Under the pieces are notes generated by a model, which saw nothing but the letters and a program-made list of their open reading frames with translations, ran no database searches and was not told the DNA's origin. Positions 4,376 through 54,590 of a DNA stretch of 64,000 nucleotides are shown here, piece after piece. Source of the DNA: a virus; the UHGV virus genome UHGV-1380027; one strand, written 5' to 3'. Both the position numbers and the translations under genes were made by a program. Each line of letters starts with the position of its first letter. Position 1 is the stretch's first letter.

Positions 4376-4397
4376 GCCCCACCCTTTCGGGTAGGGC
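4376..4397 (-). terminator. rho-independent terminator hairpin (GAAA-loop type)
   Basis: minus-strand RNA GCCCUACCC-GAAA-GGGUGGGGC followed by AUUUUUGUAU; fully paired only in minus-strand transcript (G-U pair). Confidence 0.6.
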
Positions 4398-4412
4398 TAT
4401 GTTAACTAGATG

Positions 4413-5639
4413 TTAAAAAGGTATGTCATCATCAAAGGCGTACTGTGCCGGATTCTGATCCATCGGGTCGTCTTCCGCATCATCTACAGGAGGAGCGTCT
4501 ACAGTGTTTTGCTGTGGGGCGGCTTCCTGTTTGGCAGCTTGAGGCTCTTGATGGTCAGTGGCTCCAGCACCGTTCTTGATCCAATCATACAACGGTTCAG
4601 CAAGATTAGTCAAGACATCTTTTGCCTCTGCAGTAATTGCTACTGCAAAATCATCAACTTTCGTTTTCTTGTCAATACGGCGACAAGCGTTCAATACCGC
4701 ATTACCAACACTGGCACCTACTTCATCTTCAGTTCGGTTAGTGGCTTGAGCGTACTCTTTCTTAAGCTCGATGGTGACCACGTGCAGTGTTTTAGCCACA
4801 TCTAAAGGGCTGTCAATCTTAAACCCGCGATCCAAGATGATCTGCAATGCATTGATACTGTGCCCTGTCTCTACACCGATGGGGTCGTAAGAGGATTTAC
4901 GCTTACCACCAGAACCTTGTGTACCGTTCTCTGCTTTAGGCGGGTAGGCCTTGAAGCCGCTGATAATATTCCCGGTGTCTTTGTCAACAATAGCTGCAAC
5001 ACGACCGCCAACCACCAGGTCTTTAAGCTGCTCATCGGAGACAACCATAGCACCTTCGCCAATCTTGTGGTCATTGACAGTAACCACGTTACCAACAATC
5101 TGAGTCACATCACCATAGATGCGTAAAACGTCCTGATTGGCATTCTGCTGAGGTTTCTGCTTCTGGCCTTGTGATTGTGTGCCTTGTTGCTGTTTTTGTT
5201 GCTGTGGAGCTGATGGAGCCTCTCCTGCCCCCAACTTAACCATTTTAGCCAGTGAGCCTTTGTAGTAGGTCTTACCGTTATGCTCATTTGCCTTTAAAGG
5301 GATATTTACGATCCATCCTGGCGTTACTGTTTCCCACTTGTCATCAATTTTAACAGAGACGGAGTCTTGATGACCAGGCTTAAGCAGCTTATCACCCATG
5401 CTGATCCAAACTTCTTCACCACCTTGGAGCAGGTTATCAGAGGAGTCCAGTTCAGAAATCAGTAAAGAGATGGTGTGGCTGGATTCAATTTTCTTACCTT
5501 GCCACACAGTGGTTTTAATACCTGTTGTAGGATCAGCACCTTTAATGGGCTTGATGCTGACACGTTTAATCATACCGTGAGCCAGTAAAACAGTTTCACG
5601 CGGATTCATCGGGTTAGCAAATTGTTGGATAACGCTCAT
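4413..5639 (-). CDS. SSB-like protein with host-SSB-type C-terminal tail (408 aa)
   Basis: C-terminus AFDDDIPF identical to bacterial SSB tip; Gln/Gly-rich linker PQQQKQQQGTQSQGQKQKPQQ; adjacent to replication genes. Confidence 0.5.
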   Translation of the reverse strand: MSVIQQFANPMNPRETVLLAHGMIKRVSIKPIKGADPTTGIKTTVWQGKKIESSHTISLLISELDSSDNLLQGGEEVWISMGDKLLKPGHQDSVSVKIDDKWETVTPGWIVNIPLKANEHNGKTYYKGSLAKMVKLGAGEAPSAPQQQKQQQGTQSQGQKQKPQQNANQDVLRIYGDVTQIVGNVVTVNDHKIGEGAMVVSDEQLKDLVVGGRVAAIVDKDTGNIISGFKAYPPKAENGTQGSGGKRKSSYDPIGVETGHSINALQIILDRGFKIDSPLDVAKTLHVVTIELKKEYAQATNRTEDEVGASVGNAVLNACRRIDKKTKVDDFAVAITAEAKDVLTNLAEPLYDWIKNGAGATDHQEPQAAKQEAAPQQNTVDAPPVDDAEDDPMDQNPAQYAFDDDIPF

Positions 5640-6049
5640 TATTTATCTCCTTGTTCTTCGTTAGTGGTTGATGTATGTGCAAACCCTGCTTGAATTAATT
5701 TGTCCTGGACTTGAGCTAACAGGCCCATTGCAAAACTCGTCGTCCCAGAAAGGGCCATTAGCATATCTCGTTGTTGAGCTACCCAACCTAAGGCATAATC
5801 CAAACGACGATATTTCTCTTCTTCTCGCAGAGCCTGGAATAACTGTTCAGCCTCTGGTTGTTGTGTGAGCTCCTGAAGTCTCCCCATGAAAGAAGAAAGT
5901 ACCAGCAGAAGAGACACTTGATCTTTGCTTAACCCTAAGAAAAATTCTTGAGGTTGTTCTTGCTCGTTCATCGCAACCGACGCTTGATCGTTCATTTGTT
6001 CCATTGTGGAATCTCCGATTTTATTTGAACAACATAAAGGAGACACCAT
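5639..6049 (-). CDS. hypothetical protein (136 aa)
   Basis: strong SD AAGGAGA 7 nt upstream of ATG. Confidence 0.55.
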   Translation of the reverse strand: MVSPLCCSNKIGDSTMEQMNDQASVAMNEQEQPQEFFLGLSKDQVSLLLVLSSFMGRLQELTQQPEAEQLFQALREEEKYRRLDYALGWVAQQRDMLMALSGTTSFAMGLLAQVQDKLIQAGFAHTSTTNEEQGDK

Positions 6050-6086
6050 TTTAGCATCTCCTTCTGTAAATTACAACAGCTATTTG

Positions 6087-6332
6087 TTAGCCAATTACTT
6101 CGAAAGTGCCCCAGCTTCCGTTCAGCAGGCAGGTGATCGGATCGCCATCATCGTCAAATATTTCAAAGTTTTCAGCATCCAGAATATGATCATCGAACAC
6201 AATGCTCTTATCTCCACCACCAGAAATAACAGCGTATTCCTTACCTTGTGTTAGGTTCTGGCAACCTTTGCCGCCGAAACCAACTTCAACACAACGTACT
6301 TTCTGTCCTGCGCGAGCAACTACTCCAGCCAT
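6087..6332 (-). CDS. small protein, KDDxG-W family member (81 aa)
   Basis: SD AGGAGA; motif IFDDDGDPITC. Confidence 0.5.
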   Translation of the reverse strand: MAGVVARAGQKVRCVEVGFGGKGCQNLTQGKEYAVISGGGDKSIVFDDHILDAENFEIFDDDGDPITCLLNGSWGTFEVIG

Positions 6333-6349
6333 CTTAAGGTCTCCTGATA

Positions 6350-6652
6350 TTAATCGTCAAGTTCAAAATAGATTTTAACAGCTTCATCAAAGATTGGAAT
6401 CCCGATGTTGTTGATAAGCTGCCAAACTACCATATCTTTTCCTGGATCTGGGAGAATGTCAACCTTTCTCCATGCGCTGTATATCCAGTTCGGACCGCCT
6501 TCTGCACTAACTGGTAGATTTTCACCAGCTTCTTGTAGATACTTATACAGCAAAAGGTATTCTGGGTACTCTAGAACACTGTCCTCTGTAGTATATAGCA
6601 GTTCACGGTATACTTTCAAGAATCCTGTTGGGTTGATGTTTTCAGTCTTCAT
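6350..6652 (-). CDS. hypothetical protein (100 aa; track ORF extends to 6670)
   Basis: internal ATG at 6652 has SD AGGAGA 8 nt upstream, the ATG at 6670 has none. Confidence 0.45.
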   Translation of the reverse strand: MKTENINPTGFLKVYRELLYTTEDSVLEYPEYLLLYKYLQEAGENLPVSAEGGPNWIYSAWRKVDILPDPGKDMVVWQLINNIGIPIFDEAVKIYFELDD

Positions 6653-7046
6653 TTGCTGCTTCTCCTGCATTCATCAGATCTGCCATAGCGTCACCAACGA
6701 AGAGGACAACCACGTCGTTGACAGCGTCAGCATCATCTTTATTGATGTTGCTGAATTTGGGGCACACTGCAATGACCATATAGACCCCGTTGCCCAACTG
6801 AACAGTGCGTGTAGTGCACATCAGTGTGGTGCTTGTGCCTTCTTTAAAGGCAAATCCTTGCAGACGTTCTTCCAGAGAGTCACCTGTTGATTTCAACAAG
6901 GCAAGATCTCCCAGTGCGTAGGTAGTGTCCTCATAGGTCAGTCCAGAGGTCAATGTTGCCTTTCCATCAGAGACTATAATAACTCCATCGGCACCGTCAA
7001 GCTCAGAGGCTTCAAAGATATTAATATCCCAAATGTTTTTCATCAC
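6642..7046 (-). CDS. hypothetical protein (134 aa)
   Basis: co-oriented ORF. Confidence 0.5.
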   Translation of the reverse strand: MMKNIWDINIFEASELDGADGVIIVSDGKATLTSGLTYEDTTYALGDLALLKSTGDSLEERLQGFAFKEGTSTTLMCTTRTVQLGNGVYMVIAVCPKFSNINKDDADAVNDVVVLFVGDAMADLMNAGEAANED

Positions 7047-7375
7047 GCTTCCTCGTCATCTAAGTAATCATCAAGAGAGGTGAAGATTTCACCGAAGTAT
7101 TCTAATACCTCCAGCTCTCTGGTGGTGCAACAAACATAATCTCCCTGGTCATCCTTGATAGTAGCCTCCTTACCTAGCACATCCACTTCAAATTCATCGT
7201 TTAGCAGGACGGCCCCTGTGTAAACTTTATCTGCCGTGCAGTCCCGAAAAGCAGAGTCCTTCTCCAAGTAGTCTGGCTTAACCTTGGCTTTAATTCGTTG
7301 ATATTGTTTGGTCATTGCTGTGGTCCCCTTTCGTTTTGATAGGGCCATTATATTAGGCCCTATCGCTATTGTCAA
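7043..7375 (-). CDS. small protein, KDDxG-W family (110 aa), paralog of 7379..7633
   Basis: shared motifs AF(R/K)DCT and (I/F)KDD(Q/E)GD.V.CT with neighbour. Confidence 0.55.
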   Translation of the reverse strand: MTIAIGPNIMALSKRKGTTAMTKQYQRIKAKVKPDYLEKDSAFRDCTADKVYTGAVLLNDEFEVDVLGKEATIKDDQGDYVCCTTRELEVLEYFGEIFTSLDDYLDDEEA

Positions 7376-7378
7376 GTA

Positions 7379-7633
7379 TTAATGCTCAGGTTTTACAAAA
7401 ACTACTTCGTTAACAGTGCACCAGACAGAATCTCCTTCATCATCTTTAAAGGTAAGACACTGGGCTGAGTTTTCCAACTCATCGAGCTCTTCTTGTGATA
7501 AATAGGTCCCTTCTTCCAGAAGAGCTTTTACCAGAGGGTTCTCACAAAACTCTGCTTCATAAATTGCACCGAGTGTGCAATCTTTAAAAGCTCGGTCATT
7601 TGCAACGCATTCTGGCTTCAAAGTGATTTGCAT
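7379..7633 (-). CDS. small protein, KDDxG-W family (84 aa), paralog of 7043..7375
   Basis: shared motifs with neighbour. Confidence 0.55.
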   Translation of the reverse strand: MQITLKPECVANDRAFKDCTLGAIYEAEFCENPLVKALLEEGTYLSQEELDELENSAQCLTFKDDEGDSVWCTVNEVVFVKPEH

Positions 7634-7709
7634 CTTAGCAGTCTCCTCAATTATTTAAAAATCAAATCTCTGTTTGTGTGAAGTATCTTATATCCAATCT
7701 TACTTCTTG

Positions 7710-8108
7710 TCAATGGCTATTTTCAATCATCCACACAGGGTCGAGGTAAATTTGTTGGCGTTTTGCCCAATGACAAACTTCATTGTACATCTGAATCTCT
7801 TTGTCTGTCAATTCACGAATAGGCTCATCTATACCCTCATTTTTGTGGTAATCCCAGTCGGCATCGATTTCCCACAACCATGACTTACGATCTTCACGCT
7901 TACGCACACAGAAGTCCCCAGGACGGCCTGCCAGTGCATTTAAGAACTCGTTCTCCGCTCGCTCCTGAAGAATACTAAGGAGCAAAACGTTGGAGCATGA
8001 CCGTAAAATATGCTTCAGCTCACAATCATCGATCTCAACTTCAATACGTTGCTTGACTGTGTGGGTACCTTTTACTAACATTCTACCTCCTCTATACAAA
8101 CTCTGCAA
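7710..8108 (-). CDS. hypothetical protein (132 aa)
   Basis: co-oriented ORF. Confidence 0.5.
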   Translation of the reverse strand: MQSLYRGGRMLVKGTHTVKQRIEVEIDDCELKHILRSCSNVLLLSILQERAENEFLNALAGRPGDFCVRKREDRKSWLWEIDADWDYHKNEGIDEPIRELTDKEIQMYNEVCHWAKRQQIYLDPVWMIENSH

Positions 8109-8286
8109 GGGTTGTGTTGTTCACCGCACCGCAGTAGATGGAATATCCCAACCCATTAGGGTGCAGAAACCACGGCACACCTTGGTCATCCTTCACGTAT
8201 ACATCTCCATTTTCCGTGAAGGGCCAATACTCTTCCCCAAGGGTAAAATACCTACTCATACCTTCAGCCAGATACTTTACTTTCAT
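8092..8286 (-). CDS. small protein, KDDxG-W family (64 aa)
   Basis: motif VYVKDDQGVPWFL; paralogous to next two ORFs. Confidence 0.5.
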   Translation of the reverse strand: MKVKYLAEGMSRYFTLGEEYWPFTENGDVYVKDDQGVPWFLHPNGLGYSIYCGAVNNTTLAEFV

Positions 8287-8510
8287 AGATCCTCTTCAAC
8301 AACTGCAAACTTGGCAAGTAGGGTGGTCCCATAGATATGATACTCACCATTTGACAGATGGGAGATATACCAGGAGATACCGTCCTCGTCTTCGATCATA
8401 TTGTTCCTGCGATCCTTATCGTAATAAACCTTGTAGACCTTACCTTCTTCAAAGAATGACAGGTCTGTCATCTTTTCTTCTACAAACGTAGCTTTAACCA
8501 AAGTTGTCAT
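8283..8510 (-). CDS. small protein, KDDxG-W family (75 aa)
   Basis: FFEEGKVYKV and EDEDGISWYI; ATGA-type overlap with neighbours. Confidence 0.5.
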   Translation of the reverse strand: MTTLVKATFVEEKMTDLSFFEEGKVYKVYYDKDRRNNMIEDEDGISWYISHLSNGEYHIYGTTLLAKFAVVEEDL

Positions 8511-8791
8511 TGATCTGTCTCCTTCTTGTTGAGCCGGAACACTGCAATAATAGCATTTCCAAGATGCAGTGTCAAATCATTCCCCAGATACCATAACATT
8601 CCACGGTCATCTTTAATGAAAGGGTAACAATCCGGTGCCTTCCAGACATTATACACTTTGCCGACCTGAAAGAAATCAGGCCCTGTTGGAATTTTAGTAC
8701 CGGGCCACACTTGGGACACCTGAACGCACTCTACCTGCATAATGACAGGGATAGTCATGGAGGTAAATGTTTTTGTTGGTTCTACTACCAT
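8507..8791 (-). CDS. small protein, KDDxG-W family (94 aa)
   Basis: FFQVGKVYNV and IKDDRGMLWYL. Confidence 0.5.
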   Translation of the reverse strand: MVVEPTKTFTSMTIPVIMQVECVQVSQVWPGTKIPTGPDFFQVGKVYNVWKAPDCYPFIKDDRGMLWYLGNDLTLHLGNAIIAVFRLNKKETDQ

Positions 8792-8842
8792 AAAAGTCTC
8801 CTCTCTTTGTCTAACAACACTTCCGTGTGTTGATAGTTTACA

Positions 8843-11620: not shown

Positions 11621-11678
11621 ATACAGTTCTCCTTAAAGGGGAGGCGGTTGTACTACCCCTCCCACTCTTGGTTAAACA

Positions 11679-13757: not shown

Positions 13758-14511
13758 TAATTCTTCTCCTTACTGCAGGCTCGTTTGCTAAGAATACAGC
13801 TCTTGCCCAGCCACGTGGTGTAAGGCTTCGAATCATCTTCGTCCTTGCACTCTTTCCACCTAGCTTAGCGTGTTGCATGGAATAACCACTAACCACATCA
13901 ACTATTTGCGGGACAGGTTTTGTGGCGGGGATTATAAATCCATTGCCTATCCAACCGCAAGTTATTTTTGGGTAGGCATCACGTGGAGCTATAAATTCAG
14001 GAAACCATGGGTTTACATCGTCCTCTGGTAGATACCCACCATAATCCGAAGGATGAAAACGGTAATCAGGTTTTCGCCACAGTGTTGACATAACTCCTAC
14101 AGGGTTCTCTACATGCCACGGGCAATCATAAATCTCTCCCAACTCTTCTGCAACCCGAGCATCTTTCACAGCATTAATTTGGATCAGTGGGTCCTTAGCC
14201 AGCTTTTTCTTAAAGTGTGCAGCTCCGGATACTGCTAAATGCGTGCACGGAGGAAATGCAAGAATAAAGTCTGGAGCTGGATACATGCAAAAAGTTTCTT
14301 GAGGGAACCATGGATCAATCCAATAATCCACATAGTGAATGTTAGGATGATCGGTTATCACCTCTGCATAACTACCGTGGTCAGCACCTTCTGCATTAAA
14401 GCACAGGCACAGGTACCCAGCTTTTGCCCAGTCAATAACTGCACCACCAGACCCGTCAAATAGACTCCACACGACACCTTTGTGGTAGTGTTCTTTGTAG
14501 ATAAATTTCAA
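13747..14511 (-). CDS. DNA (cytosine-5)-methyltransferase-like protein, short (~254 aa)
   Basis: motif I FDGSGG, motif IV PPCT, motif VI ENPVG; start moved from track GTG (14541, inside terminator hairpin) to TTG at 14511 with SD AGGAGA; 3' end overlaps primase-helicase start by 11 nt. Confidence 0.5.
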   Translation of the reverse strand: MKFIYKEHYHKGVVWSLFDGSGGAVIDWAKAGYLCLCFNAEGADHGSYAEVITDHPNIHYVDYWIDPWFPQETFCMYPAPDFILAFPPCTHLAVSGAAHFKKKLAKDPLIQINAVKDARVAEELGEIYDCPWHVENPVGVMSTLWRKPDYRFHPSDYGGYLPEDDVNPWFPEFIAPRDAYPKITCGWIGNGFIIPATKPVPQIVDVVSGYSMQHAKLGGKSARTKMIRSLTPRGWARAVFLANEPAVRRRINGQ

Positions 14512-14534
14512 TTTGCTGTCTCCTAATGCAAAAA

Positions 14535-14556
14535 GCCCCACCCTTTCGGGCAGGGC
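14535..14556 (-). terminator. rho-independent terminator hairpin (GAAA-loop type)
   Basis: minus-strand RNA GCCCUGCCC-GAAA-GGGUGGGGC then CUUUUUGCAUU; paired with two G-U wobbles only on minus strand. Confidence 0.6.
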
Positions 14557-14562
14557 ATAGTG

Positions 14563-15045
14563 TTAAACCCGGATACCTATTGTATACTCGGTGGATACCA
14601 ATGTCAAATCTAAATTTAAAATTTCTTGCATCTCATAGTATGCGTCCAGGGTGAGATACATTTCACCATCCTTTTCTACATACTTGTCAAGGTGTTTGAG
14701 GCACTTTGGATAGCTATCAAGGGCAGCCTTTAGGCACTCAAACTCCGTGCTGTTGATGAATCCTTCCATCTTGGCTACCCGTTCCGGAGTAACGATAGCA
14801 CTGTAGTGAGATTTAGCTTCCTGAATGCAATGGGTCCAAGCATCAACTTTCTCTTCGAAAAGTCCGAAGAACTTCTTCTTGGTGAGCTTCAGATTCTTTA
14901 AGTGCTTAAGAACTCGGTTGCCGATTACAGACACATCACGAAACTTAAGGATCACTTTGTCAATATCCTCGCGGCCTATTTTCACAAAACAAGCCTCACA
15001 CATTTCAGGAGAGGCATAACCTACCTTCCACATAAAATCTGACAT
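14563..15045 (-). CDS. hypothetical protein (160 aa)
   Basis: co-oriented ORF followed by terminator. Confidence 0.5.
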   Translation of the reverse strand: MSDFMWKVGYASPEMCEACFVKIGREDIDKVILKFRDVSVIGNRVLKHLKNLKLTKKKFFGLFEEKVDAWTHCIQEAKSHYSAIVTPERVAKMEGFINSTEFECLKAALDSYPKCLKHLDKYVEKDGEMYLTLDAYYEMQEILNLDLTLVSTEYTIGIRV

Positions 15046-17161: not shown

Positions 17162-17222
17162 CGTTTGGTGCTCTCCTTAGTTTTTGTGGGGAGGAGTGCC
17201 TCCCCTTTATACTCACATCTTA

Positions 17223-22129: not shown

Positions 22130-22626
22130 TTATTGCGCTCCTTGTAGTAGATATGACTCCCGAATTGAGCTGTCCTCTGCATCTTTTTTGCCCATTTCGG
22201 TCGTACTTTTGTTGTATGGTAGTGTGTTGCTCCACCTGTTATATCCATAGCCATGTATGCAACATGGTTGTTATTATAGACCTTTAGAAGCATCTTTGCA
22301 AGACTTTTAGCGTGATCCCATGAATCTTTTTCTGTCACCTTAAAAGTTTTGCCGTGGTTTGTCCACGAAAACTGGTTAGGTTGGTAGACAATCTTTCTTA
22401 TAGTGTCTGGGTATTTGGGGTGAGATTTCCTGTTTAGTGTGGCAAATCCGGATGCCAGCATCCCCATCGTGCCATCCCCTCTAGCCTCCCTGTAGATATT
22501 GCATGCTAGAATGTTTTCCTTAGTATCCGACGGCTTGCAAGTGTGATATACTTTTTGTTTTGGTGCTGCAACAACAGGCAGCGATAAAAATGCGCTCAAA
22601 ATAATAGCAAAGATTTTAATTTTCAC
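22126..22626 (-). CDS. secreted cell-wall hydrolase, SleB/CwlJ-like (166 aa) with signal peptide
   Basis: N-terminal signal peptide MKIKIFAIILSAFLSLPVVAAP; motifs CNIYREARGD and YQPNQFSW. Confidence 0.6.
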   Translation of the reverse strand: MKIKIFAIILSAFLSLPVVAAPKQKVYHTCKPSDTKENILACNIYREARGDGTMGMLASGFATLNRKSHPKYPDTIRKIVYQPNQFSWTNHGKTFKVTEKDSWDHAKSLAKMLLKVYNNNHVAYMAMDITGGATHYHTTKVRPKWAKKMQRTAQFGSHIYYKERNK

Positions 22627-22646
22627 AATAGCTCCAAATAGAAAAT

Positions 22647-22662
22647 CCCCGCCGAAGCGGGG
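22647..22662 (-). terminator. rho-independent terminator hairpin (UUCG-loop type)
   Basis: minus-strand RNA CCCCGC-UUCG-GCGGGG followed by AUUUUCUAUUU; the U-tract overlaps the SD of the hydrolase gene. Confidence 0.6.
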
Positions 22663-22675: not shown

Positions 22676-23056
22676 TTAATCGTAGTGTGCCAAAATCTCT
22701 CCATCGTTGCAAGTCCCCTCTACGAAGTTGTGAAGATTCATGCATTCATCTTGATAGAAGAATTTACCGCTTTTCAGCCGTAGACCAAACAACTCCGCAT
22801 CTCCACGATGGCAAGCCTCTACAAGTTCATAGATTTCATACGGTAATTCCCCATCGTCATGGAAGAACCCCGCTTTATCGTTGACATAGATGAAGAAATA
22901 GTCACTGCTGTCGCAAGCGTCCAGTATTTTAAACCAGATTTCATCCACATCTTTTTCTCGGATATCGATCACACAAGTGGAGCTGCATTCGTACTCCTTC
23001 TCCGGCTCCTCGGTCAATACCACTAGGTAGTTTCCCCGCTTACCTACTTTAGCCAT
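22676..23056 (-). CDS. hypothetical protein (126 aa)
   Basis: co-oriented ORF. Confidence 0.5.
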   Translation of the reverse strand: MAKVGKRGNYLVVLTEEPEKEYECSSTCVIDIREKDVDEIWFKILDACDSSDYFFIYVNDKAGFFHDDGELPYEIYELVEACHRGDAELFGLRLKSGKFFYQDECMNLHNFVEGTCNDGEILAHYD

Positions 23057-24944: not shown

Positions 24945-24946
24945 TA

Positions 24947-29388: not shown

Positions 29389-29652
29389 ATGGCAACAGAG
29401 TTAAAATTTGCATCCAACCGTAAAACTAAGAAGTATCTGTCTTCAGTAGCTCCAGGTACTGTGGTGATGTTTGTTGATGAACTTGGAGATGTGAATACAG
29501 CACTTGTTGTGAGATCACATCCTGCAAACATATATGTTGGGGTATTTGACCTGTTCAGAAAGGTGTTTGCAGAACTACCTCACACCTTGGTTGTTACAGA
29601 AATGGATGCCTGCATAGAAATTCTTGGCGAAGTTATGGTGGAGGAACAATAA
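29389..29652 (+). CDS. small protein, tandem paralog 1 of 4 (87 aa)
   Basis: SD AAGGAGGAG; shares GTVV...FDL...LP...VTE.D..I.ILGE pattern with next ORF. Confidence 0.6.
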   Translation: MATELKFASNRKTKKYLSSVAPGTVVMFVDELGDVNTALVVRSHPANIYVGVFDLFRKVFAELPHTLVVTEMDACIEILGEVMVEEQ

Positions 29653-29915
29653 TGGCTACTAGCATTGTATTCAATTCTAAAGTGAAGAACAAAAAGCGTG
29701 CAGACAGTTTTCCATGTGGGACCGTGGTAAGTTGTGACGGAGACGGCATTCAAAACATAGTTATGATTGTCAAAACAGGGGAACATTGTGTATGGGGGTT
29801 CGATTTAGAAAATAATGAGTTGTACGATCTGCCACCAAACATGAAAGTTACAGAGCTTGACACCAAAATTACCATCCTTGGAGAGACAAGCTATTCAAAA
29901 GAAGGAGGAGAATAA
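29652..29915 (+). CDS. small protein, tandem paralog 2 of 4 (87 aa)
   Basis: TAATG overlap with upstream gene, SD GGAGGAA. Confidence 0.6.
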   Translation: MATSIVFNSKVKNKKRADSFPCGTVVSCDGDGIQNIVMIVKTGEHCVWGFDLENNELYDLPPNMKVTELDTKITILGETSYSKEGGE

Positions 29916-30178
29916 TGACCACGAAAATCACCATTGCAGAACCAAAAGCTAACACGCAACCTATCGAAAAGTTTAAATGCGGTGAGGTGGTAACATTTAC
30001 ACCAGATAATGAAGATGCTAAGATTTTTGCCATGGTAACAGCCGAGTGGATGTGTGACAATACCACACAGGTGCTGCGTTTTGACACCTATCTTACAGAT
30101 GAAATCAGGAACGACAAGATCGTGACTGGTGTGGATACTGAGATTATTTTCTACAAGAGCTTTTTAGAGGGTTTCTGA
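29915..30178 (+). CDS. small protein, tandem paralog 3 of 4 (87 aa, more diverged)
   Basis: TAATG overlap, SD AAGGAGGAG; same length, FKCGEVV and VTGVDTEIIF motifs. Confidence 0.55.
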   Translation: MTTKITIAEPKANTQPIEKFKCGEVVTFTPDNEDAKIFAMVTAEWMCDNTTQVLRFDTYLTDEIRNDKIVTGVDTEIIFYKSFLEGF

Positions 30179-30179: not shown

Positions 30180-30413
30180 ATGGCAAAAATTCGTAAATTA
30201 TCCAGCAATCAGGTTGTGAAAGACTTTGAATCTGGAGAGATCTTGTATGTCCGTGATGCAGATGATGAATGTGAAGATCTTGTTATGCTGGTAGGGCACG
30301 CTGAAGACGGATGCATCCAGGCTGTTTTTCTTGAAACAGCGATGGTGCACTGGATAGAGCTGGACCTGAAAGCACGAAAACCTAAAGCAGAAATCATTAT
30401 TTACGAAGATTAA
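30180..30413 (+). CDS. small protein, tandem paralog 4 of 4 (77 aa, most diverged)
   Basis: immediately follows paralog 3; FESGEIL motif at conserved position. Confidence 0.5.
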   Translation: MAKIRKLSSNQVVKDFESGEILYVRDADDECEDLVMLVGHAEDGCIQAVFLETAMVHWIELDLKARKPKAEIIIYED

Positions 30414-33853: not shown

Positions 33854-33866
33854 CTATAAAAAGAAA

Positions 33867-33891
33867 GGGGCCATTTGGCCCCCCTTTTTTT
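33867..33891. terminator. bidirectional rho-independent terminator between convergent blocks
   Basis: GGGGCC-ATTT-GGCCCC stem-loop flanked by AAAAGAAA upstream and TTTTTTT downstream. Confidence 0.7.
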
Positions 33892-39540: not shown

Positions 39541-39588
39541 TGTGTTCTCCAGATAAGAAAACCGCCCCGTCAGGAGCGGTCAGATATA

Positions 39589-41334
39589 TTAACGTTGTGC
39601 AATAACCACATCCACAATATCACCAACACCACAATATGTCAATTGTAGCAAGGTGACACTGTTGGCTTTGTTGTTAATAACAGGAGTAGCCGACAGTATG
39701 GCATATTTATCGTGTAAAGTCACGTTGTGGCCTACAGCATCCTGAATGACATAGATGATTGCAGTGAACGGGTAAGGTTTATCTTCAGCCGATGTTCCAG
39801 GCCATTGCCCTATTGTAAAATCCCCTTTCGCGTGGACAACATACATATTGGCCTGCCCGTTAGGTGTCCATGTCCCACTAGATGCGTCAGCCTCCTCTAA
39901 GTCAAACTCCACCTTCCCTGCATGGAAAGCAGGGGCAGTAATAGTTTTACCAGCTTCAATTTCTTGAGAGGTGGTTATCTTGCCACTAGAGTTAATGCCA
40001 TTACAGACAAAGTTGACATTAGAGAAGTCTGGCAGCCACCCAGTCACTGTACCTGATATTTCAAGGTTGTGAAGGTGGGTGGTGCCAGTCCCTGCTGCGT
40101 TTAAACTAACATCTCCATTTACCTGCAAGTTTCTGGTAACGTTGCAGTTTTCAGAGTTTGCAGTTGTTGCAGTTAAAGTGGTGGTTGTCAGCTCGGTAAT
40201 TACACCTTTGTTGGCTGTAAGTCCTTCTCCTTCAAAAGTGGCACGCTCATTCACCCTCAGAGTATTTAAAGATATGTTCTGGACAGATGCTGTGCCACGA
40301 ATGACTATAGATCCTCCAACCTCTAAATCTCCATTGATCAGTGCATCTCCCGTGCTTTCAATATAGCTAGGGTAGATCATGGTGCCATCTACAGAGTAGG
40401 TTATCCCTGTAACGGTGCCTGTCACCTCAAGGTTCTTAACCCTAGTGGTCCCATCAACCTGCAATGTCGGTTCGGTGGCTGCCTTCATGGCATTACCGCG
40501 AATGTACACGTAGTCAAAAAAGTTATTACCTAGACCATCAAAATGCACATCGTTGTTATTAGCCACTGGTTTCCCAGAAGTTATAGTGTCAGCTATAACT
40601 CTGTGAGTTGATACTTCATGAGGTTGCAGCTCTGTGCTCCTCCAGTCTGCATGCTTAGGATCGCTCCACGCAAAAGTCAGTGTAGAAGTATTTGCCGTAA
40701 GGATTAGGTTCCTGAAGCGTGCAGTAGAATCTGCTCCATTAACAGGTCCGTGTAAGGTAAGGGTACCCCCAACTATAGTGTTAGCAAGTTCTGTAAGACC
40801 TTTTACCACCAAAGATCCTACAGTAACTTTCATCCCCTCCATGGCTTTAAATATGCTATCCACATAGTCAACAACAAACTCTGTGTTTGCTATAGACTCG
40901 GACTTATCATCCATTGGAGGTGTAGGTACTCTCGGGTCACCTTCGAACCTTGGGCTGTTAAGTTTTGCGTAGTATTTTGCCATTACTGCAGAGTCGGTGT
41001 ATAATCTCCAGTTCGGAGATTGTGAAGGATCTGCTGGCATCCTAACCGGGTTAGATTTTGACGCTGCTGGAGCGTACCACCACTGAGGGCCTGTATCTCC
41101 TTTAAACTCATACAGCTGGTTAAAAACTGTTGTGGATGCACCATACGCCCAAGGGATCGGTGGCGTTTTAAAATAAAGGTTGTCAAGCATGGCTTTTCGT
41201 ACCGTAGGGATAGTGGTCCCATCCTCTACGACAACTTCATCCACAGCGTTACCGTTGACAACCAAGTGCAAACGTTCAGAATCAACAATTACTTGATCTA
41301 CCGCCTGCTCGAAGCTTGTCATGTCTTGCGCCAT
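39589..41334 (-). CDS. tail fibre / tailspike-like protein (581 aa)
   Basis: Thr/Gly/Asn-rich beta-strand repeats (TGTVTGITYSVDGT, NLEISGTVTG); location in fibre module. Confidence 0.45.
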   Translation of the reverse strand: MAQDMTSFEQAVDQVIVDSERLHLVVNGNAVDEVVVEDGTTIPTVRKAMLDNLYFKTPPIPWAYGASTTVFNQLYEFKGDTGPQWWYAPAASKSNPVRMPADPSQSPNWRLYTDSAVMAKYYAKLNSPRFEGDPRVPTPPMDDKSESIANTEFVVDYVDSIFKAMEGMKVTVGSLVVKGLTELANTIVGGTLTLHGPVNGADSTARFRNLILTANTSTLTFAWSDPKHADWRSTELQPHEVSTHRVIADTITSGKPVANNNDVHFDGLGNNFFDYVYIRGNAMKAATEPTLQVDGTTRVKNLEVTGTVTGITYSVDGTMIYPSYIESTGDALINGDLEVGGSIVIRGTASVQNISLNTLRVNERATFEGEGLTANKGVITELTTTTLTATTANSENCNVTRNLQVNGDVSLNAAGTGTTHLHNLEISGTVTGWLPDFSNVNFVCNGINSSGKITTSQEIEAGKTITAPAFHAGKVEFDLEEADASSGTWTPNGQANMYVVHAKGDFTIGQWPGTSAEDKPYPFTAIIYVIQDAVGHNVTLHDKYAILSATPVINNKANSVTLLQLTYCGVGDIVDVVIAQR

Positions 41335-42666: not shown

Positions 42667-42721
42667 ATTCTCCTGAGAAAATTCCTTAAGGACTATTTTA
42701 ACACTTTAGAGAACAAAATGC

Positions 42722-42745
42722 AAGAACGGCATCCTTACCGTTCTT
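42722..42745 (-). terminator. possible terminator hairpin
   Basis: 8-bp stem AAGAACGG / CCGTTCTT with 8-nt loop, followed on minus strand by GCAUUUUGUUCU. Confidence 0.35.
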
Positions 42746-42753
42746 ACCTTTGT

Positions 42754-44719: not shown

Positions 44720-44731
44720 TTTATCTCCTGA

Positions 44732-47490: not shown

Positions 47491-47501
47491 ATCTCACCGC
47501 C

Positions 47502-48992: not shown

Positions 48993-49072
48993 GTCACTCC
49001 TCCGGTATGAAAATCTCTACAAGGTATTTTACCAAATTTTGTAACAATAGTCAATCTGAGCATAAAAATAAA

Positions 49073-49088
49073 CCCCGCCGAAGCGGGG
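49073..49088 (-). terminator. rho-independent terminator hairpin (UUCG-loop type)
   Basis: minus-strand RNA CCCCGC-UUCG-GCGGGG followed by UUUAUUUUUAU. Confidence 0.65.
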
Positions 49089-49096
49089 CTTTACTG

Positions 49097-52000
49097 TTAG
49101 CCATGAGACTCGTTCCAAGGTCCCTGGAAGCTAGAGTTTGAACGACTAACTATTACGGTTGGACAAGATATTGTAACTCCTGTCACGCTTGACCTTGGTG
49201 TGTATATCTCGACGATAATGTCTATGGTTTGTTCACCGAGACCAGTTATCCCTACCGCACACATGCCGTTGTTGTCGTTTCCGTACTTCTTGCCTGCAAG
49301 GATTTGATGTCCGGCTATCCAAACGTTGAGCTGGGAGCCAGACAAGGTTCCGTTTAGTTTAAAGAAGAATGTTACGTTCTTACCTTGCCCTGAAACGTTG
49401 TCCACATATCTCCACCTCCAACGGCAAACCCCCTGCTGCGAGTTATATACCGGAGGACAGTCACCATAGGTCCTATGTGCAACGATTGCACCTTCGAACT
49501 GGTCAGCACGGATAACGGAAGCTTCTACACGTCCACGGAATGTACCTCCTGTTGCATCTATGGTGCCTCTAAAGCTACCATTATTGGCATAAACATCCCC
49601 ACGGAAAGTGCCACTGGTAGCGTTAACTGCCCCTGTGAAGTTACCTGCACTAGCGTTGATGTTACCTTTCACCCACACATCCATAAACTGGGCGTGTCCG
49701 TTCTTGTTAATATACCAACCGTATTTATGGTACCCGTTGCCATCGTAGTTGTTAGACGAAATTTCTTGTGCAATCTTGGCAGAAGAGATCGTCCCGTTCT
49801 CTATAAAAGCATCTTTCAAGAACGCTTGGTTGTTCTTGATTGCGAAAGCAAGGGTTGCTGTTCCATTTCCGGGGTTGTATACCGCAAAGTTGTTTGCACT
49901 AACCATGAAGTATGATTGAACTTGGCCTCCAGAGCCTTCCATGCCCAATTGGATACCTGCCACATACTTATTCCCTGCGGAGTCTACCTGTATTTTTGTG
50001 CCCCATTGAGCATTTACTTTGCCCTCTAAGTCTGTCACAGCCTTAGATGTTGTAGCTACTGCAGCTCTAAGCTCTGACACATCACCGACATCATCAATGA
50101 TCTCCTGCTTAGCAACAGCAAGTTCTTGACGAATAGCTGACGCTGTGCCGTTAATAAGATCCACGGTTGCTTTGTTGGTATCGGAGATTGTAGCGTCCAG
50201 TGCTGTTTTTGTGGAGGTCAGCTTACCATCCAAATCCTTAATCGCCTGTTTGTTGGTAGAAATTTCTCCACGTGCAGAAGTTATCTGCTCCGACAGTGCA
50301 GAGGTTTTCTGATTCAACAAATCTGTGGTGGCCTTGTTGGTATTGGCAATCAAGGTATTGAGATCAGTTTTTGCGGTAGTTATCTTACCATCAAGGGTGG
50401 TATAGTTCTTAGATACCGTCGCGTTTGTCTGACTGATCTTTTGATCCAGAGTTTCAGATGTCCTGTTGAGAAGATCCACTGTCGCCTGGTTGGTGCTTAA
50501 GATGCTTGCATCAAGTTCCGTTCTCTGAGTATTGATCTTGCCATCTAGAGTTTTATCTCCGGCAAGGTATCCGCTCTCCACACCACTTATTTGTTCTACC
50601 AACTCCCCTTTGGCTGCAACCAATTTCTCGTCTAAAGCCTCTGTCTTTTTGTTCAGAAGATCAGTGGTTGCTTTGTTGGTTGTCTCGATCAGGGATGCCA
50701 GTCTTCCACTTTCAGTGTTCAGATCGTTGGTGAACTTGTTCTGTGCAGCAACAAGTTTCCTATCCAGAGCTGTGATATTACCATTGACATCCTCAAACTT
50801 CTGAGTTGTCTCTGCAACTACTGCACCTATCCTATCTCCAAGTTGTTGGAATGCCTCATCTACCCTTCCGTCCATGTACTTGTTAAGCTCTGTGACACGA
50901 TTTTCAACCTCCTCGATAGAGGAATCTAAAGTGCTCATCAACTCTTTATAAGTTTCTGTCTTTTTAAATTCAGCATCTATCTGAGGCATCAAATCTTCAA
51001 TAGAGGTGTAGCAGCGTGCAGCGCATTCTACAAACTGAGAACTACCAAAAGCGTTTGTGGTTCGAATATACCAATAATAAATCTTATCGTTCTGCAGACC
51101 TTCAGATGTCCAAGTTGAACCAACACCCATACGGGTAGCTTTTGAAGTAACGGTTGCATCACTTGTGTCCGGCAACCTTGTCATACCAGATGTCCAAAAA
51201 TCATACTGGGTGCTTACACTTGCTAAGTCCCTGCTGTGCGGAATCAAGGTGATAGCAAAGTATCCCTGCTTAACTTCTACAGAAACAGGAGCTTCAGGTG
51301 CTTGAATGTTGAACTCGCAGTAGGCTTCTGGAGATACACCACCCTTATAAGATGTTGCAACCACGGTTGCTGTGTATGACCCTTTGGTCAATCCTTCTAC
51401 GCGGACAAACTGCTCGACTGTTTGTGCTGTCCAAATAATCTCTCCGTTCTTTCTTACCTGCACAATATTTTGAGCATAAGTTCCAACGTTGTCCCAAGCC
51501 AAAACACCATGAGTTACTTCCCCAGCTTGAAGAACAGAGTATCTGAAGTTTTGCGGTTGAGCTACACCGGACGGGGATATCGGAATATCCACATCTCCAG
51601 AATCCGGAAGTTGCCCTGTGGCATCATTCCACTCTTTAGCATCTTGACGGAGTTTTACCTTGACACCGCCCTTTTTGGTGAACTCCCATTCAAGAACCCT
51701 CATTTCTTGGCCCACTATACCAATACTTGGGAGGTCCATCGTAACGTAACGCCCAGGCTTAAATTTAAAACCCCGCATATTGCAGGTTACTTCAATAATC
51801 CTGCCAGCTCTGGCACGTCTTAAGAATATTGCGGAAACACGCTGAGCCTGATAAGGACTGGTAACAAAACGATAATCTATATCAATTATCTTTCTTTCTC
51901 CGTCCTTCTCTACCCATTCAGGTACGAACACCGATGGGAAGTCTGTTTCAGAATACCCTTTGGTTGGACTGGTGAATCTCCCAGTTATTGTGTTTGATCT

Positions 52001-52930
52001 TTTGTCGAAGGAGGCTTCAGGATAGATCTTAACCTCACCGCAAACACAGTCCTCACTCAGTGTCATTGTTGCCGGGCCATAGTATGCACCTACCAGCAGA
52101 CCGTATTTGCCAGCTACATAGCTAAGGTCTGCACCACAAGCCTTCAGCATTTCTGCCATAATACTTGCTGGTGCTTCGTCCATGTCGAACTCACCATTAA
52201 TAGTGTAACGGCGCTCACTGGTTCCGTCCGCGTTTTTTACAGCCTCGTCGCATATGTTGGCAGCTTCCTTGAAGGACTCCCAGTTGATGGTTTCGTCAGG
52301 ACATTTAAGGTACGTTCTTAGATAGTCCAGAATCACCAAGGCAGCGTTGTTGGTATACACCTCTTTACTGATACGAGGATCATAACATTTTTTACCAACC
52401 TTGACAAGTGTAACGTTTGGCAACCCAAAAGGAAACTTGTTAGGGTCAAACTTAAAGCTGGCACGTAGCCAACTGATCCCTCTACCTATCATGTCTGGTG
52501 ACCACGAAGGGCAGTGTGTGCCCATGAAAGGATCAGAGGTTTTCCTGTCGTTATGCAACTCCCACGATACCAAATCCCCATACGAGGAAATAGGATTACC
52601 GTCGATAAGTATATCTTCTATACCTTCCAAGGGATGATTGGCAAGAACAATAGCACAATGAAGGGTTCTGTCCCTGTCCTGCTCCAAAAACGCAAGCAAT
52701 CCAGATGTGCGTGTCTTCCCATACACTACAGAGCAAGGTGCAGCAGAAGATCTGAGAAGCTTTTGTCTATCTTGTGGACTTCTGTAAGATTTGTTGCCTT
52801 CGAAAATCTTATCAAGGGTTCTGGTGGTAACAGTGTTCAGGCTGTCAGCCAGAGCTGCCTTGGATGCGTTCCAGTCATAGCTCGAAGATCTTGCAGAAGC
52901 AACGATGTTATCAATCATTGCAATTGGCAT
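49097..52930 (-). CDS. large tail/host-specificity-like structural protein (1277 aa) with internal ~53-aa repeats and C-terminal GTFRG repeats
   Basis: fibronectin-III-like segment (SYTATVVATSYKGGVSPEAY), four to five coiled-coil repeat units (TNKATTDLLNKKTEALDEKL etc.), GNFTG/GTFRG/GSFRG beta repeats. Confidence 0.5.
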   Translation of the reverse strand: MPIAMIDNIVASARSSSYDWNASKAALADSLNTVTTRTLDKIFEGNKSYRSPQDRQKLLRSSAAPCSVVYGKTRTSGLLAFLEQDRDRTLHCAIVLANHPLEGIEDILIDGNPISSYGDLVSWELHNDRKTSDPFMGTHCPSWSPDMIGRGISWLRASFKFDPNKFPFGLPNVTLVKVGKKCYDPRISKEVYTNNAALVILDYLRTYLKCPDETINWESFKEAANICDEAVKNADGTSERRYTINGEFDMDEAPASIMAEMLKACGADLSYVAGKYGLLVGAYYGPATMTLSEDCVCGEVKIYPEASFDKRSNTITGRFTSPTKGYSETDFPSVFVPEWVEKDGERKIIDIDYRFVTSPYQAQRVSAIFLRRARAGRIIEVTCNMRGFKFKPGRYVTMDLPSIGIVGQEMRVLEWEFTKKGGVKVKLRQDAKEWNDATGQLPDSGDVDIPISPSGVAQPQNFRYSVLQAGEVTHGVLAWDNVGTYAQNIVQVRKNGEIIWTAQTVEQFVRVEGLTKGSYTATVVATSYKGGVSPEAYCEFNIQAPEAPVSVEVKQGYFAITLIPHSRDLASVSTQYDFWTSGMTRLPDTSDATVTSKATRMGVGSTWTSEGLQNDKIYYWYIRTTNAFGSSQFVECAARCYTSIEDLMPQIDAEFKKTETYKELMSTLDSSIEEVENRVTELNKYMDGRVDEAFQQLGDRIGAVVAETTQKFEDVNGNITALDRKLVAAQNKFTNDLNTESGRLASLIETTNKATTDLLNKKTEALDEKLVAAKGELVEQISGVESGYLAGDKTLDGKINTQRTELDASILSTNQATVDLLNRTSETLDQKISQTNATVSKNYTTLDGKITTAKTDLNTLIANTNKATTDLLNQKTSALSEQITSARGEISTNKQAIKDLDGKLTSTKTALDATISDTNKATVDLINGTASAIRQELAVAKQEIIDDVGDVSELRAAVATTSKAVTDLEGKVNAQWGTKIQVDSAGNKYVAGIQLGMEGSGGQVQSYFMVSANNFAVYNPGNGTATLAFAIKNNQAFLKDAFIENGTISSAKIAQEISSNNYDGNGYHKYGWYINKNGHAQFMDVWVKGNINASAGNFTGAVNATSGTFRGDVYANNGSFRGTIDATGGTFRGRVEASVIRADQFEGAIVAHRTYGDCPPVYNSQQGVCRWRWRYVDNVSGQGKNVTFFFKLNGTLSGSQLNVWIAGHQILAGKKYGNDNNGMCAVGITGLGEQTIDIIVEIYTPRSSVTGVTISCPTVIVSRSNSSFQGPWNESHG

Positions 52931-53367
52931 TAATACCTCCAGACATCAACAACGATAGAATCTTTCATGTCGAACATAAAGATCCCTTTATCACCTTTCG
53001 CCCAAATCTGGTTGTTCCAGAACACACCAGCGGTGAGCCCGTTCAGACCTTCGAAAATAACAATATCACCACGCTGAACCTGTTTAGGAGTATCCAGTCG
53101 AGTCAAAAAGAGATCAAAAATAGTAGGCAGATGTGTGGTTTTGAAACGAAGCATGCACCATCTCTTGCTTTCCAACTCTGTTTTATACGTTCCTTCAAAG
53201 TTAGAAAGAAAATCTGTTCCGTATTGGGCATCAACACACTTAGCCGCAAAAGTGCAGCAATCGTGGAATCCCCATTCAAACGGGACGGTGACTTCTTCGT
53301 CAAACACTTTCCACAATCTTTCTTGCCAGTCCACTAAACGAGGGTGTGTGCTCATTAAACCTCCCAA
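52930..53367 (-). CDS. tail-associated protein, possibly NlpC/P60-like (145 aa)
   Basis: FHDCCTFAAKC and RGDIVIF motifs; weak. Confidence 0.3.
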   Translation of the reverse strand: MGGLMSTHPRLVDWQERLWKVFDEEVTVPFEWGFHDCCTFAAKCVDAQYGTDFLSNFEGTYKTELESKRWCMLRFKTTHLPTIFDLFLTRLDTPKQVQRGDIVIFEGLNGLTAGVFWNNQIWAKGDKGIFMFDMKDSIVVDVWRY

Positions 53368-53921
53368 ATGATCGGGCGGCTTGCCACCTGATCCACATAT
53401 TTAAAAAATCTGTCATTATCGTTTCTTGAGCTATGGCTCTCCTCTGTGTATCGATAAGGAAAACCTCTTAACCAGCTGTTGAAGATGGAAGATATGGATA
53501 TGGACAAAGCACTATTCTCCCCTGTCTGAATAGCCATGTCTGTTATAAGGCCGTCAAACAAGCCATTGGTTGTAACAGGTAAACCATTCTCCATAGCTGT
53601 GATATACAACGTGGCACGACAACCCGAATACTCCGTCTTCAGCAGATCACCTACATACTTGGGATCAAACCCGTTCAATGTTGCTACCACAGACCCAAAG
53701 TTGGTGGCATCTTTCTCAGATACAGCAGTCAATGTTGCTGATCCACCTATCCCTATAAAATGCTGCCCCTCAATCACCACAACACCAGTGCCTGAGCACA
53801 CCCTGACAGTTCCTGTTGGCAGCTCTAGCTTTGCGGCAATTAAGATCTCAACACTATCAAGCTCTAGCTTTTCAAGAAATAAATTATCTAATGGCGCTCT
53901 TATCATCTTAGAAATCCTCAA
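53355..53921 (-). CDS. hypothetical tail protein (188 aa)
   Basis: co-oriented ORF within tail module. Confidence 0.4.
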   Translation of the reverse strand: MRISKMIRAPLDNLFLEKLELDSVEILIAAKLELPTGTVRVCSGTGVVVIEGQHFIGIGGSATLTAVSEKDATNFGSVVATLNGFDPKYVGDLLKTEYSGCRATLYITAMENGLPVTTNGLFDGLITDMAIQTGENSALSISISSIFNSWLRGFPYRYTEESHSSRNDNDRFFKYVDQVASRPIIWEV

Positions 53922-54501
53922 AAAAGTTGATAACTATATTATCACCTTTCTGCATAGCATCAACCTTTTGCTTAATCTTATAGAGATCCCTGATATGAAA
54001 TCTACCCTTCGGAGATTGAGTTATTATCTTCATAGTATCCCCTGCGGCAATAGGTTTTCTAAGTCTTGGTGATATGTTTATAACAGCTGCCCCCACACCA
54101 TCACTTCGCACTGAGGATGTCACAACTTTCAACTCATCATTGACAGATATTTTATCCCCAGCCCTGACTATATCTCTGTTCGGTTCCCAACCAACCGTCT
54201 TCAAAAAATCGTCATTACCAGTTGGTCCTAGAGCGATTGGTTCATTGGAAGTAACTGAATGACCATAAGCCTTGATAAGAAAAATGTTTCCATCTTTGTA
54301 AACCTGATCAACAAAACTTTTAAGCTCCAATAGCTGGGACTCACTTATATTGGAAACCGTCAAAGTTCCTTTCCAGTTGGGCGTGGCATAGGTTACTTTT
54401 TGCGTCTTACCTGTAAACGGGCTTTTAAACGTAACAATATCTGCCAGCAACTCCAATCTAATATCTGGAAGATATCTAGGTCTTTCCCATAAAAACATCA
54501 T
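53908..54501 (-). CDS. hypothetical tail protein (197 aa)
   Basis: co-oriented ORF within tail module. Confidence 0.4.
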   Translation of the reverse strand: MMFLWERPRYLPDIRLELLADIVTFKSPFTGKTQKVTYATPNWKGTLTVSNISESQLLELKSFVDQVYKDGNIFLIKAYGHSVTSNEPIALGPTGNDDFLKTVGWEPNRDIVRAGDKISVNDELKVVTSSVRSDGVGAAVINISPRLRKPIAAGDTMKIITQSPKGRFHIRDLYKIKQKVDAMQKGDNIVINFFEDF

Positions 54502-54570
54502 GCCTCCAGGTTAAACAATTATGATAGTTATTTTACCAGATTTTAAGTTAATACGCAATACAAACAAAAA

Positions 54571-54590
54571 GCCCTCGCCGAAGCGAGGGC
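54571..54590 (-). terminator. rho-independent terminator hairpin (UUCG-loop type)
   Basis: minus-strand RNA GCCCUCGC-UUCG-GCGAGGGC followed by UUUUUGUUUGUAUU. Confidence 0.65.

Follow-up and report, generated by a model that had tools for sequence, protein, structure and literature searches.

What are the five short, G+C-rich hairpins that lie just past the ends of genes in a 64,000-nucleotide (nt) stretch of the virus genome UHGV-1380027 (the whole of which is referred to here as the window), and what would they do to the transcripts that run through them? A reading made from the sequence only had taken them for two recurrent families of intrinsic terminators, one with GAAA and one with UUCG loops, that pair properly only in the minus-strand transcript, and had further proposed that they constitute a conserved module marking operon boundaries in the early and the late regions. 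The window is that of a Vequintavirus, that is, an rV5/FV3-like Escherichia coli myovirus: a 4-kb piece of it matched 117 phage records at 90-99% identity, a 9-kb piece matched 123 records, nearly all of them at 90-99% identity, and the matched records, which include rV5, FV3, ECP26 and B9-1, are all Vequintaviruses. The minus strand carries its genes, except for a block at ~26.8-33.9 kb. Our answer, which we hold with a probability of roughly 0.85 on the strength of sequence comparisons, is that the five elements are canonical Rho-independent terminators of the host E. coli RNA polymerase, acting on minus-strand transcripts; they do not all appear to mark operon boundaries.

All five hairpin sequences were found on the minus strand at the positions that had been proposed for them. 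The predicted terminators are the following (hairpins are given in the direction of transcription):

Site 1: 4368-4397, minus strand, terminator with hairpin 4397-4376, GCCCTACCC-GAAA-GGGTGGGGC, as RNA GCCCUACCC-GAAA-GGGUGGGGC.
Site 2: 14527-14556, minus strand, terminator with hairpin 14556-14535, GCCCTGCCC-GAAA-GGGTGGGGC, as RNA GCCCUGCCC-GAAA-GGGUGGGGC.
Site 3: 22636-22662, minus strand, terminator with hairpin 22662-22647, CCCCGC-UUCG-GCGGGG, and tail AUUUUCUAUUU.
Site 4: 49058-49091, minus strand, terminator with hairpin core 49088-49073, CCCCGC-UUCG-GCGGGG, and tail AUUUUUAU.
Site 5: 54558-54590, minus strand, terminator with hairpin 54590-54571, GCCCTCGC-TTCG-GCGAGGGC, as RNA GCCCUCGC-UUCG-GCGAGGGC, and tail UUUUUGUUUGU.

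The stems of these hairpins are 6-9 bp long with 6-7 G-C pairs, and all of the loops are of 4 nt. The two GAAA stems are each of 9 bp, including one G.U pair at site 1 and two tandem G.U pairs at site 2, and the core of site 4 is extended by A-U and G.U pairs to 49091-49070 (AAGCCCCGC-UUCG-GCGGGGUUU). The loops, each closed by a C-G pair, are of the extra-stable kind: sites 1 and 2 have C(GAAA)G, of the GNRA class, and the other three have C(UUCG)G, of the UNCG class. A U-tract follows each stem on the minus strand, as had been claimed: the tails read AUUUUUG (A followed by UUUUU), UUUUUG (with UUUUU as the tail proper), AUUUUCUAUUU, (UUU)AUUUUUAU and UUUUUGUUUG at sites 1-5, respectively. The placement immediately after a stop codon is likewise borne out, the hairpins starting 15, 6, 13, 5 and 6 nt past the stop codons (at 4413-4415, 14563-14565 and 22676-22678 for sites 1-3) of the minus-strand open reading frames (ORFs) 4413-5639, 14563-15045, 22676-23056, 49097-52930 and 54597-54929. 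The fourth of these terminators stands directly after the gene for a 1277-aa tail fibre/tip attachment protein. In relatives, the genes flanking the hairpins are annotated on the same strand.

A stable G+C-rich stem-loop, an adjoining U-tract and a sense position past a stop codon are thus found together at all five sites. The likeness to the tetraloop terminators of E. coli is close: the same 6-9 bp G+C-rich stem, a C-G-closed loop of 4 nt and a U-run that begins 0-1 nt further on, with nothing material that differs. (Tetraloops are said to have been found over-represented in E. coli terminators by d'Aubenton Carafa and colleagues in 1990; we searched the literature for a statement of this enrichment that could be cited and found nothing directly usable.) In a nascent transcript, the short stem with its C-GAAA-G or C-UUCG-G tetraloop would form before the U-run, and the hairpin and the U-run would together bring about release of the RNA by the host polymerase. 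We infer 3'-end formation and its efficiency from the anatomy and positions of the sites, from their sense-strand-specific pairing and conservation, and from the independent predictions of others, all of which are described below.

The minus-strand folds have energies of -20.1, -18.8, -13.1, -16.5 and -17.8 kcal/mol (sites 1-5), with z-scores of -3.6 to -5.0; when each site was compared with 200 dinucleotide shuffles, none of the 200 was as stable. With up to 3 mismatches allowed, the GAAA motif is observed 2 times against 0.00 expected and the UUCG motif 3 times against 0.12. On these shuffle controls and motif counts we reject a chance origin of the hairpins. All five sites rank at or near the top of a terminator scan and of a filtered custom scan (an initial version of the latter, with 282 candidates, was too permissive and was replaced by filtered lists). 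Strong candidates of the terminator scan that the sequence-only reading had not listed are at 39581-39560, 33885-33864, 27900-27884, 42747-42720 and 47438-47410. The second of these belongs to a bidirectional terminator at 33858-33890 that is located between convergent genes (AAAAAAGGGGGGCC-AAAU-GGCCCCUUUCUUUU, functional in prediction on both strands) and corresponds to t026/t027 of rV5. Searching both strands of the whole window with the Rfam covariance models at the gathering score gave 0 matches, on which we reject a known structured-RNA family as the identity of the hairpins, and no tRNA genes were found in the window.

Others have come to the same sites. The rV5 genome paper (Kropinski et al. 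2013, Virol J 10:76, PMC3606486) lists 20 Rho-independent terminators predicted by ARNold, an independent program for finding terminators; in its Table S4, t213 (GCCCTGCCCGAAAGGGTGGGGCATTTTT) is site 1, t232 (GGCCCTGCCCGAAAGGGTGGGGCTTTTT) is site 2, t003 (CCCCGCTTCGGCGGGGATTTTCTATTT) is site 3 and t041 (GCCCTCGCTTCGGCGGGGGCTTTTTG) is site 5. Site 4 is missing from that list, although its sequence is present in rV5. The record of phage Gotham (MT682716) carries ARNold terminators at all five homologous positions, and that of phage Alma (OV101294) has site 2 annotated, as Terminator_15. The positions are the same as those in the window and the sequences identical or nearly so. As terminators, therefore, the five hairpins are correctly identified, ordinary and already known. 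These sources do not comment on repeat structure, on strand asymmetry or on the order of the promoter P231 ahead of t232, and it is to these features that we now turn.

The proposition of proper pairing on the minus strand alone is right for the GAAA type, that is, for two of the five sites, but not for the UUCG type, whose stems are perfect palindromes. On the plus strand, internal C-A mismatches replace the G.U pairs of sites 1 and 2, which then fold at -14.6 and -12.9 kcal/mol, a loss of ~6 kcal/mol. The plus-strand folds of sites 3-5 come to -12.1, -12.7 and -17.2 kcal/mol, and what difference there is between strands is due solely to the loop bonus and to flanking A-U and G.U pairs. The asymmetry of the GAAA hairpins has a genome-wide counterpart, for which we examined B9-1 (OQ420740.1), a close relative with a complete genome. 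Of 27 terminator candidates that lie past stop codons on its sense strand, 22 have a more stable fold in the sense direction and 2 a less stable one (Wilcoxon p ~1e-4); the sense folds contain 28 G.U pairs and the antisense folds 0. That comparison is biased, its candidates having been picked by sense-strand energy and a sense T-tract, and it was redone with criteria symmetric between the strands: in the 19 GC-rich inverted repeats that have a sense T-tract, G.U pairs number 10 in the sense and 1 in the antisense direction; the bias is weaker among hairpins that have no T-tract (24 against 14). A sense-biased content of G.U pairs is a general property of this genome's terminators.

Conservation was assessed in ~15 genomes, consisting of homologous loci from IMG/VR and about a dozen GenBank genomes. 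Within the genus, hairpins and tails are near-invariant, and the U-runs are conserved to the same degree as the stems. The site-3 hairpin, for example, is invariant in 10 relatives, while its 5' flank varies by substitutions and indels. The stem changes that do occur among relatives are A/G at site 1 and at site 5 (A-U versus G.U; the window has A-U at site 1 where relatives have G.U, and A-U at site 5 where rV5 has G.U) and U/C at site 2 (G.U versus G-C). All of the stem substitutions seen keep sense-strand pairing. The loops change within their class, from GAAA to GGAA (once, at site 2) and from UUCG to UCCG (at site 5). Because the sole stem substitutions preserve sense pairing and these loop changes stay in class, selection on the hairpins is, by all indications of the sequence, exerted on the RNA and in the sense direction.

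A more distant comparison is offered by an uncultured divergent lineage with ~73-75% amino-acid identity in DNA polymerase, whose best nucleotide match to a cultured phage (76%) lies inside the helicase gene only. It keeps the site-2 hairpin and U-run even though the overlapping protein C-terminus is only ~49% identical. In relatives at ~73% amino-acid identity, the site-2 stem has G-C in place of G.U, and one of the loops is GGAA. At the position of site 3 it has another hairpin, GCCCCUUG-UAU-CGAGGGGC or GCCCCUCU-UGU-AGAGGGGC, and at the position of site 1 one of its members has a hairpin capped by UUCG. With the sequences at sites 1 and 3 replaced in this way, the positions are more durable than the sequences that occupy them.

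Do the hairpins form two families of a conserved module? The proposed reuse of near-identical hairpins is correct for sites 1 and 2, the GAAA pair, and for sites 3 and 4; all that site 5 has in common with the latter two is its loop and the closing GC pairs. The two groups are, moreover, of different kinds. The GAAA pair is a two-copy repeat of ~63 bp:

Repeat copy A: 4343-4405, minus strand, comprising a TTAACA block, the GAAA hairpin, the U-tract, a Shine-Dalgarno sequence and a start codon.
Repeat copy B: 14504-14566, minus strand, the same repeat, with the TAA of the TTAACA block serving as the stop codon of the upstream gene.

The alignment of copy B (14566-14504) with copy A (4405-4343) within the window has 65 columns, with an identity of 80% (E = 3e-7); the repeat spans the TTAACA block, hairpin, U-run, an AGGAG Shine-Dalgarno sequence and the start codon, and the genes that flank its two copies are unrelated. 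A 151-nt query around site 2 finds two matching places in most of 118 genomes, and B9-1 has exactly 2 copies of the GAAA hairpin, at both homologous loci. UUCG, on the other hand, designates a loop class with varied stems. The 27 terminator candidates of B9-1 include 5 capped by UUCG and 1 capped by UCCG, in agreement with rV5 Table S4, and the stems below these caps differ (CCCCGC, GCCCTCGC, GCCTCACC, GCCCTC and GGGGGC).

Nor are such hairpins confined to these phages. The exact UUCG hairpin GCCCCGCTTCGGCGGGGTTT is present in more than 120 viral contigs with GC contents of 35-67%, and in 71 of the 80 contigs inspected the 10 nt counted from the stem's end include at least 7 T. The GAAA hairpin, wobble pairs included, is found in ~15 viral contigs other than those of Vequintaviruses, in at least 5 unrelated contexts. 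Among 185,579 species representatives of bacteria and archaea it has 27 matches, from many phyla, against ~2 expected, and in 11 of the 27 the 10 nt that follow include at least 6 T; the Escherichia representative of that collection has no match. The occurrence in more than 120 unrelated viral contigs leads us to reject UUCG as a phage-specific terminator module, and the ~15 contigs in at least 5 unrelated contexts weaken the same notion for GAAA. That the GAAA hairpin was copied from the host is also rejected, the 27 matches being spread across many phyla with none in Escherichia. The distribution of the two sequences points to UUCG and GAAA hairpins as convergent stable designs that are probably not a module specific to these phages.

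Operon boundaries would be marked by terminators that are followed by promoters, and by that standard the five sites divide into two groups. At sites 1-3, the next start codon comes 20-25 nt past the hairpin (an ATG at 4350 for site 1 and a GTG at 22626 for site 3), and for site 1 the 150 nt upstream and the 130 nt downstream contain no promoter. The space between hairpin and gene at sites 1-3 is too short for one; the next gene therefore needs read-through, and these three sites are not operon boundaries. At sites 4 and 5, in contrast, promoter-like elements follow 15-35 nt downstream, and there the sequence-only reading is plausible:

Promoter-like element after site 4: 49025-49054, minus strand, TTGACT-17-TAAAAT with an extended -10 TG, equal to rV5 P036.
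Late-promoter-like motif TGGTAAAATA after site 5: 54529-54538, minus strand, rV5 P040.

The rV5 paper, from which the designations P036, P040 and P231 come, proposed TGGTAAAATA as a late promoter motif; it also noted that consensus sigma70-type promoters are spread over the whole genome and that homologues of the T4 late-transcription proteins are lacking (PMC3606486). The same motif occurs at 49034-49025, inside the promoter-like element of site 4. Sites 4 and 5 plausibly separate late transcription units: lying in the tail/baseplate region, they would be terminator-promoter junctions between one such unit and the next. Sites 1-3, in the early/replication region, must on this reading stop only some of the transcripts, as attenuators by which expression before and after the site is kept in proportion inside a longer unit. 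An order like that of sites 4 and 5 is also seen at a further place in the window, where a late-promoter-like motif, TGTTAAAATA at 42694-42703 (minus strand), follows 16 nt past the terminator at 42720-42747.

At site 2, the order of promoter and terminator is reversed:

Sigma70-type promoter: 14579-14607, minus strand, TTGACA-17-TACAAT, identical in sequence to rV5 P231 and matching the consensus at 11 of 12 positions.

This promoter is embedded in the 3' end of ORF 14563-15045, with 22 nt between the end of its -10 element and the hairpin, so that its transcripts must cross the terminator. With a predicted start at ~14572, the hairpin would lie at roughly +17 to +38 and the terminator would extend to about +45. 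Downstream are the genes for a primase/helicase and DNA polymerase. The promoter is conserved in the divergent lineage (L004-L007). A second instance of a promoter followed by a terminator consists of TTGACA-17-TATTGT with an extended -10 TG at 39614-39642 (minus strand) and, 32 nt on, the terminator at 39560-39581 (minus strand; GACCGCUCC-UGAC-GGGGCGGUU, rV5 t028), located between a 581-aa tail fibre gene and a 1878-aa gene. A third is at 30251-30272 in B9-1, outside the window, and both of these additional hairpins have UGAC-type loops. Of 24 terminators, 3 thus have this layout, where 0.56 would be expected (P ~0.02).

Several observations do not sit easily with simple termination at these sites. 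The literature that we searched contains no transcript 3'-end maps for any Vequintavirus, and termination is a prediction. At sites 1 and 3 an A intervenes between stem and U-run, and the U-run of the site-3 tail is interrupted, features which suggest a reduced efficiency of termination there. One relative has at site 4 a UUAG loop, which falls outside its class, and efficient termination at site 2 fits awkwardly with a conserved promoter directly before it. The hairpin that the divergent lineage has at the position of site 3 shows a compensatory exchange of G-C for U-A while the U-tract is absent; it may serve a role other than termination, 3'-end protection for example. One might on that ground regard all of the hairpins as chiefly protectors of mRNA 3' ends, barriers to 3' exonucleases rather than sites of polymerase release: extra-stable tetraloops would suit that role, and there are other intergenic GC hairpins, such as the one at 17188-17205, that have no sense U-tract. 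We consider this quite unlikely, since all five sites in the window have U-runs adjoining the stems and conserved like them. The two roles are also not mutually exclusive, terminator hairpins normally stabilising the released 3' end as well. The palindromic perfection of the UUCG stems in DNA could, in turn, be taken to signify cruciforms, protein-binding palindromes, replication or packaging sites, or inverted repeats that have arisen by chance. Pairing that depends on G.U, together with the sense-strand bias, speaks for selection on RNA, however; a sense T-run adjoins every site, each after a stop codon; and the motif counts are far above those of shuffles. To a signal at the DNA level, or to chance, we give next to no credence.

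Terminators of the host polymerase being the reading that we prefer, two further proposals concern what some of them might do in addition. The PeSLs (promoter-early stem-loops) of T4-type phages (Arbiol et al. 2010; Comeau et al. 2014) are repeated intergenic cassettes of stop codon, GC stem-loop, sigma70 promoter, Shine-Dalgarno sequence and start codon, in which the stem-loop is a terminator/attenuator that precedes the transcription start of the cassette's own promoter, and which are present in many copies in hyperplastic regions, flanking ORFans. The GAAA pair resembles them in being a repeated intergenic cassette, and the likeness of its copies goes beyond the hairpin to ~63 bp, taking in the stop-codon block, the U-tract and the Shine-Dalgarno sequence, with unrelated genes at their flanks; in some relatives, an endonuclease-like ORF has been inserted beside the site-1 hairpin, and elsewhere in the genome PeSL-like hairpins overlap TTGAC boxes. 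On these grounds one might see in the pair a regulatory cassette, mobile or recombinogenic, that has served in evolution mainly to shuffle genes. Yet there are just two copies per genome, at fixed positions in ~116 genomes, and not the many dispersed copies at indel breakpoints that mark PeSLs. The only indel nearby is the endonuclease ORF at site 1, which does not lie between two copies of the cassette, and much of the likeness in the flanks resides in functional elements (TAA, U-run, AGGAG) that are able to converge. The order of stem-loop and promoter is also different: site 1 has no promoter, the hairpin of site 2 is ~17 nt downstream of the predicted transcription start, and among the five it is site 4 alone that has the order hairpin, promoter, Shine-Dalgarno sequence. 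By definition, the arrangement at site 2 is therefore no PeSL. A mobile cassette is, in our estimation, highly improbable.

The other proposal is that site 2, and perhaps the arrangement at 39642-39560 as well, is a regulated promoter-proximal attenuator or antitermination checkpoint that times the expression of replication genes. Transcripts would stop ~45 nt downstream of their start, and would run on into the primase/helicase and DNA polymerase genes only once read-through was permitted by a factor of the phage or the host or by a change in the polymerase. The pR'-tR' region of phage lambda, the source of 6S RNA, offers the pattern: a strong sigma70 promoter, an intrinsic terminator close by, at a distance of 194 nt, antitermination by Q and a gene block behind. 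Site 2 alone shares with it a strong sigma70 promoter, a close intrinsic terminator and genes of one functional block behind them. The analogy does not go beyond the layout; the distance is ~45 instead of 194 nt, and a Q-like protein, a qut-like site or a pause element was not identified. In favour of a temporal switch of that type are the near-consensus promoter so close to the hairpin, the absence of space for a further promoter before the next gene, the replication module directly downstream and the enrichment of the layout, as well as the conservation of promoter, hairpin and U-tract where the overlapping C-terminus has drifted and the local DNA is otherwise undetectable by megablast. That enrichment consists of three cases, however, no antiterminator gene was identified, and the conservation of the promoter may perhaps come from overlapping coding sequence that is conserved at the DNA level. 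An anti-terminator fold that would compete in the P231 leader was looked for in the window and in a divergent relative and found in neither, and that mechanism is rejected. A leaky terminator with read-through from upstream promoters would also suffice, in the absence of any regulation. We regard a checkpoint as unlikely, although the sequence would fit a leaky terminator, a regulated checkpoint or a 5' stabiliser alike.

Other observations made in passing bear on neighbouring subjects. In several relatives, the 408-aa gene is separated from the site-1 hairpin by an inserted ORF of ~190-210 aa whose annotation is endonuclease or endonuclease VII (L003, 17465-18040; L168, 714-1337, JEP1_088; L171, 714-1292); it shares the site-1 terminator in those genomes and is absent from the window. 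In B9-1, outside the region corresponding to the window, a 24-nt hairpin, GATGGCCTTGACTCCAGGGCCATC, is repeated at 111103, 111723 and 115457, with a variant at 112054; it has TTGAC in the loop region and looks like a stem-loop over a -35 box, by analogy with the T4-type PeSL cassettes. The GC hairpin at 17188-17205 (sense GGGGAGGCACUCCUCCCC) occupies a minus-strand intergenic gap and has a T-run on the plus strand only; the Alma record has a terminator annotated at the homologous position, and the early region of B9-1 contains several GC hairpins like it, flanked by A-rich sequence. Hairpins at 815-845 and 6037-6063 (both minus strand; AAGGAG(G)A...CUAAAAUGG...CUCCUU) enclose a Shine-Dalgarno sequence and an ATG (829-827 and, at the start of ORF 5639-6049, 6049-6047); they look like hairpins of translation initiation regions and not like terminators. 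On the plus strand, three adjoining ORFs of 87 aa each (29389-29652, 29652-29915 and 29915-30178) suggest, by their equal size, a tandem gene triplication. Lastly, 16-18 GenBank records of 'Campylobacter phage' (MG065672 and MG065655, for example) are more than 91% identical to E. coli Vequintaviruses; those inspected are marked UNVERIFIED and have no annotation, and the attribution to a Campylobacter host looks doubtful.

The terminator sites have the routine value of annotation, delimiting transcription units in rV5-like phages of interest for biocontrol and phage therapy. What is added here to the existing annotation is the corrected account of strand specificity, the distinction between a repeat and a loop class, the requirement for read-through at sites 1-3, by which the terminators of the early region are not operon boundaries, and the observation of a promoter ahead of the terminator of the replication module. 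The near-exclusive sense orientation of G.U pairs in terminators is usable for strand calling. We know of no temporal switch that has been described in Vequintaviruses; if the arrangement of P231 and site 2 is regulated, it would provide the first handle on temporal control in this group of phages.

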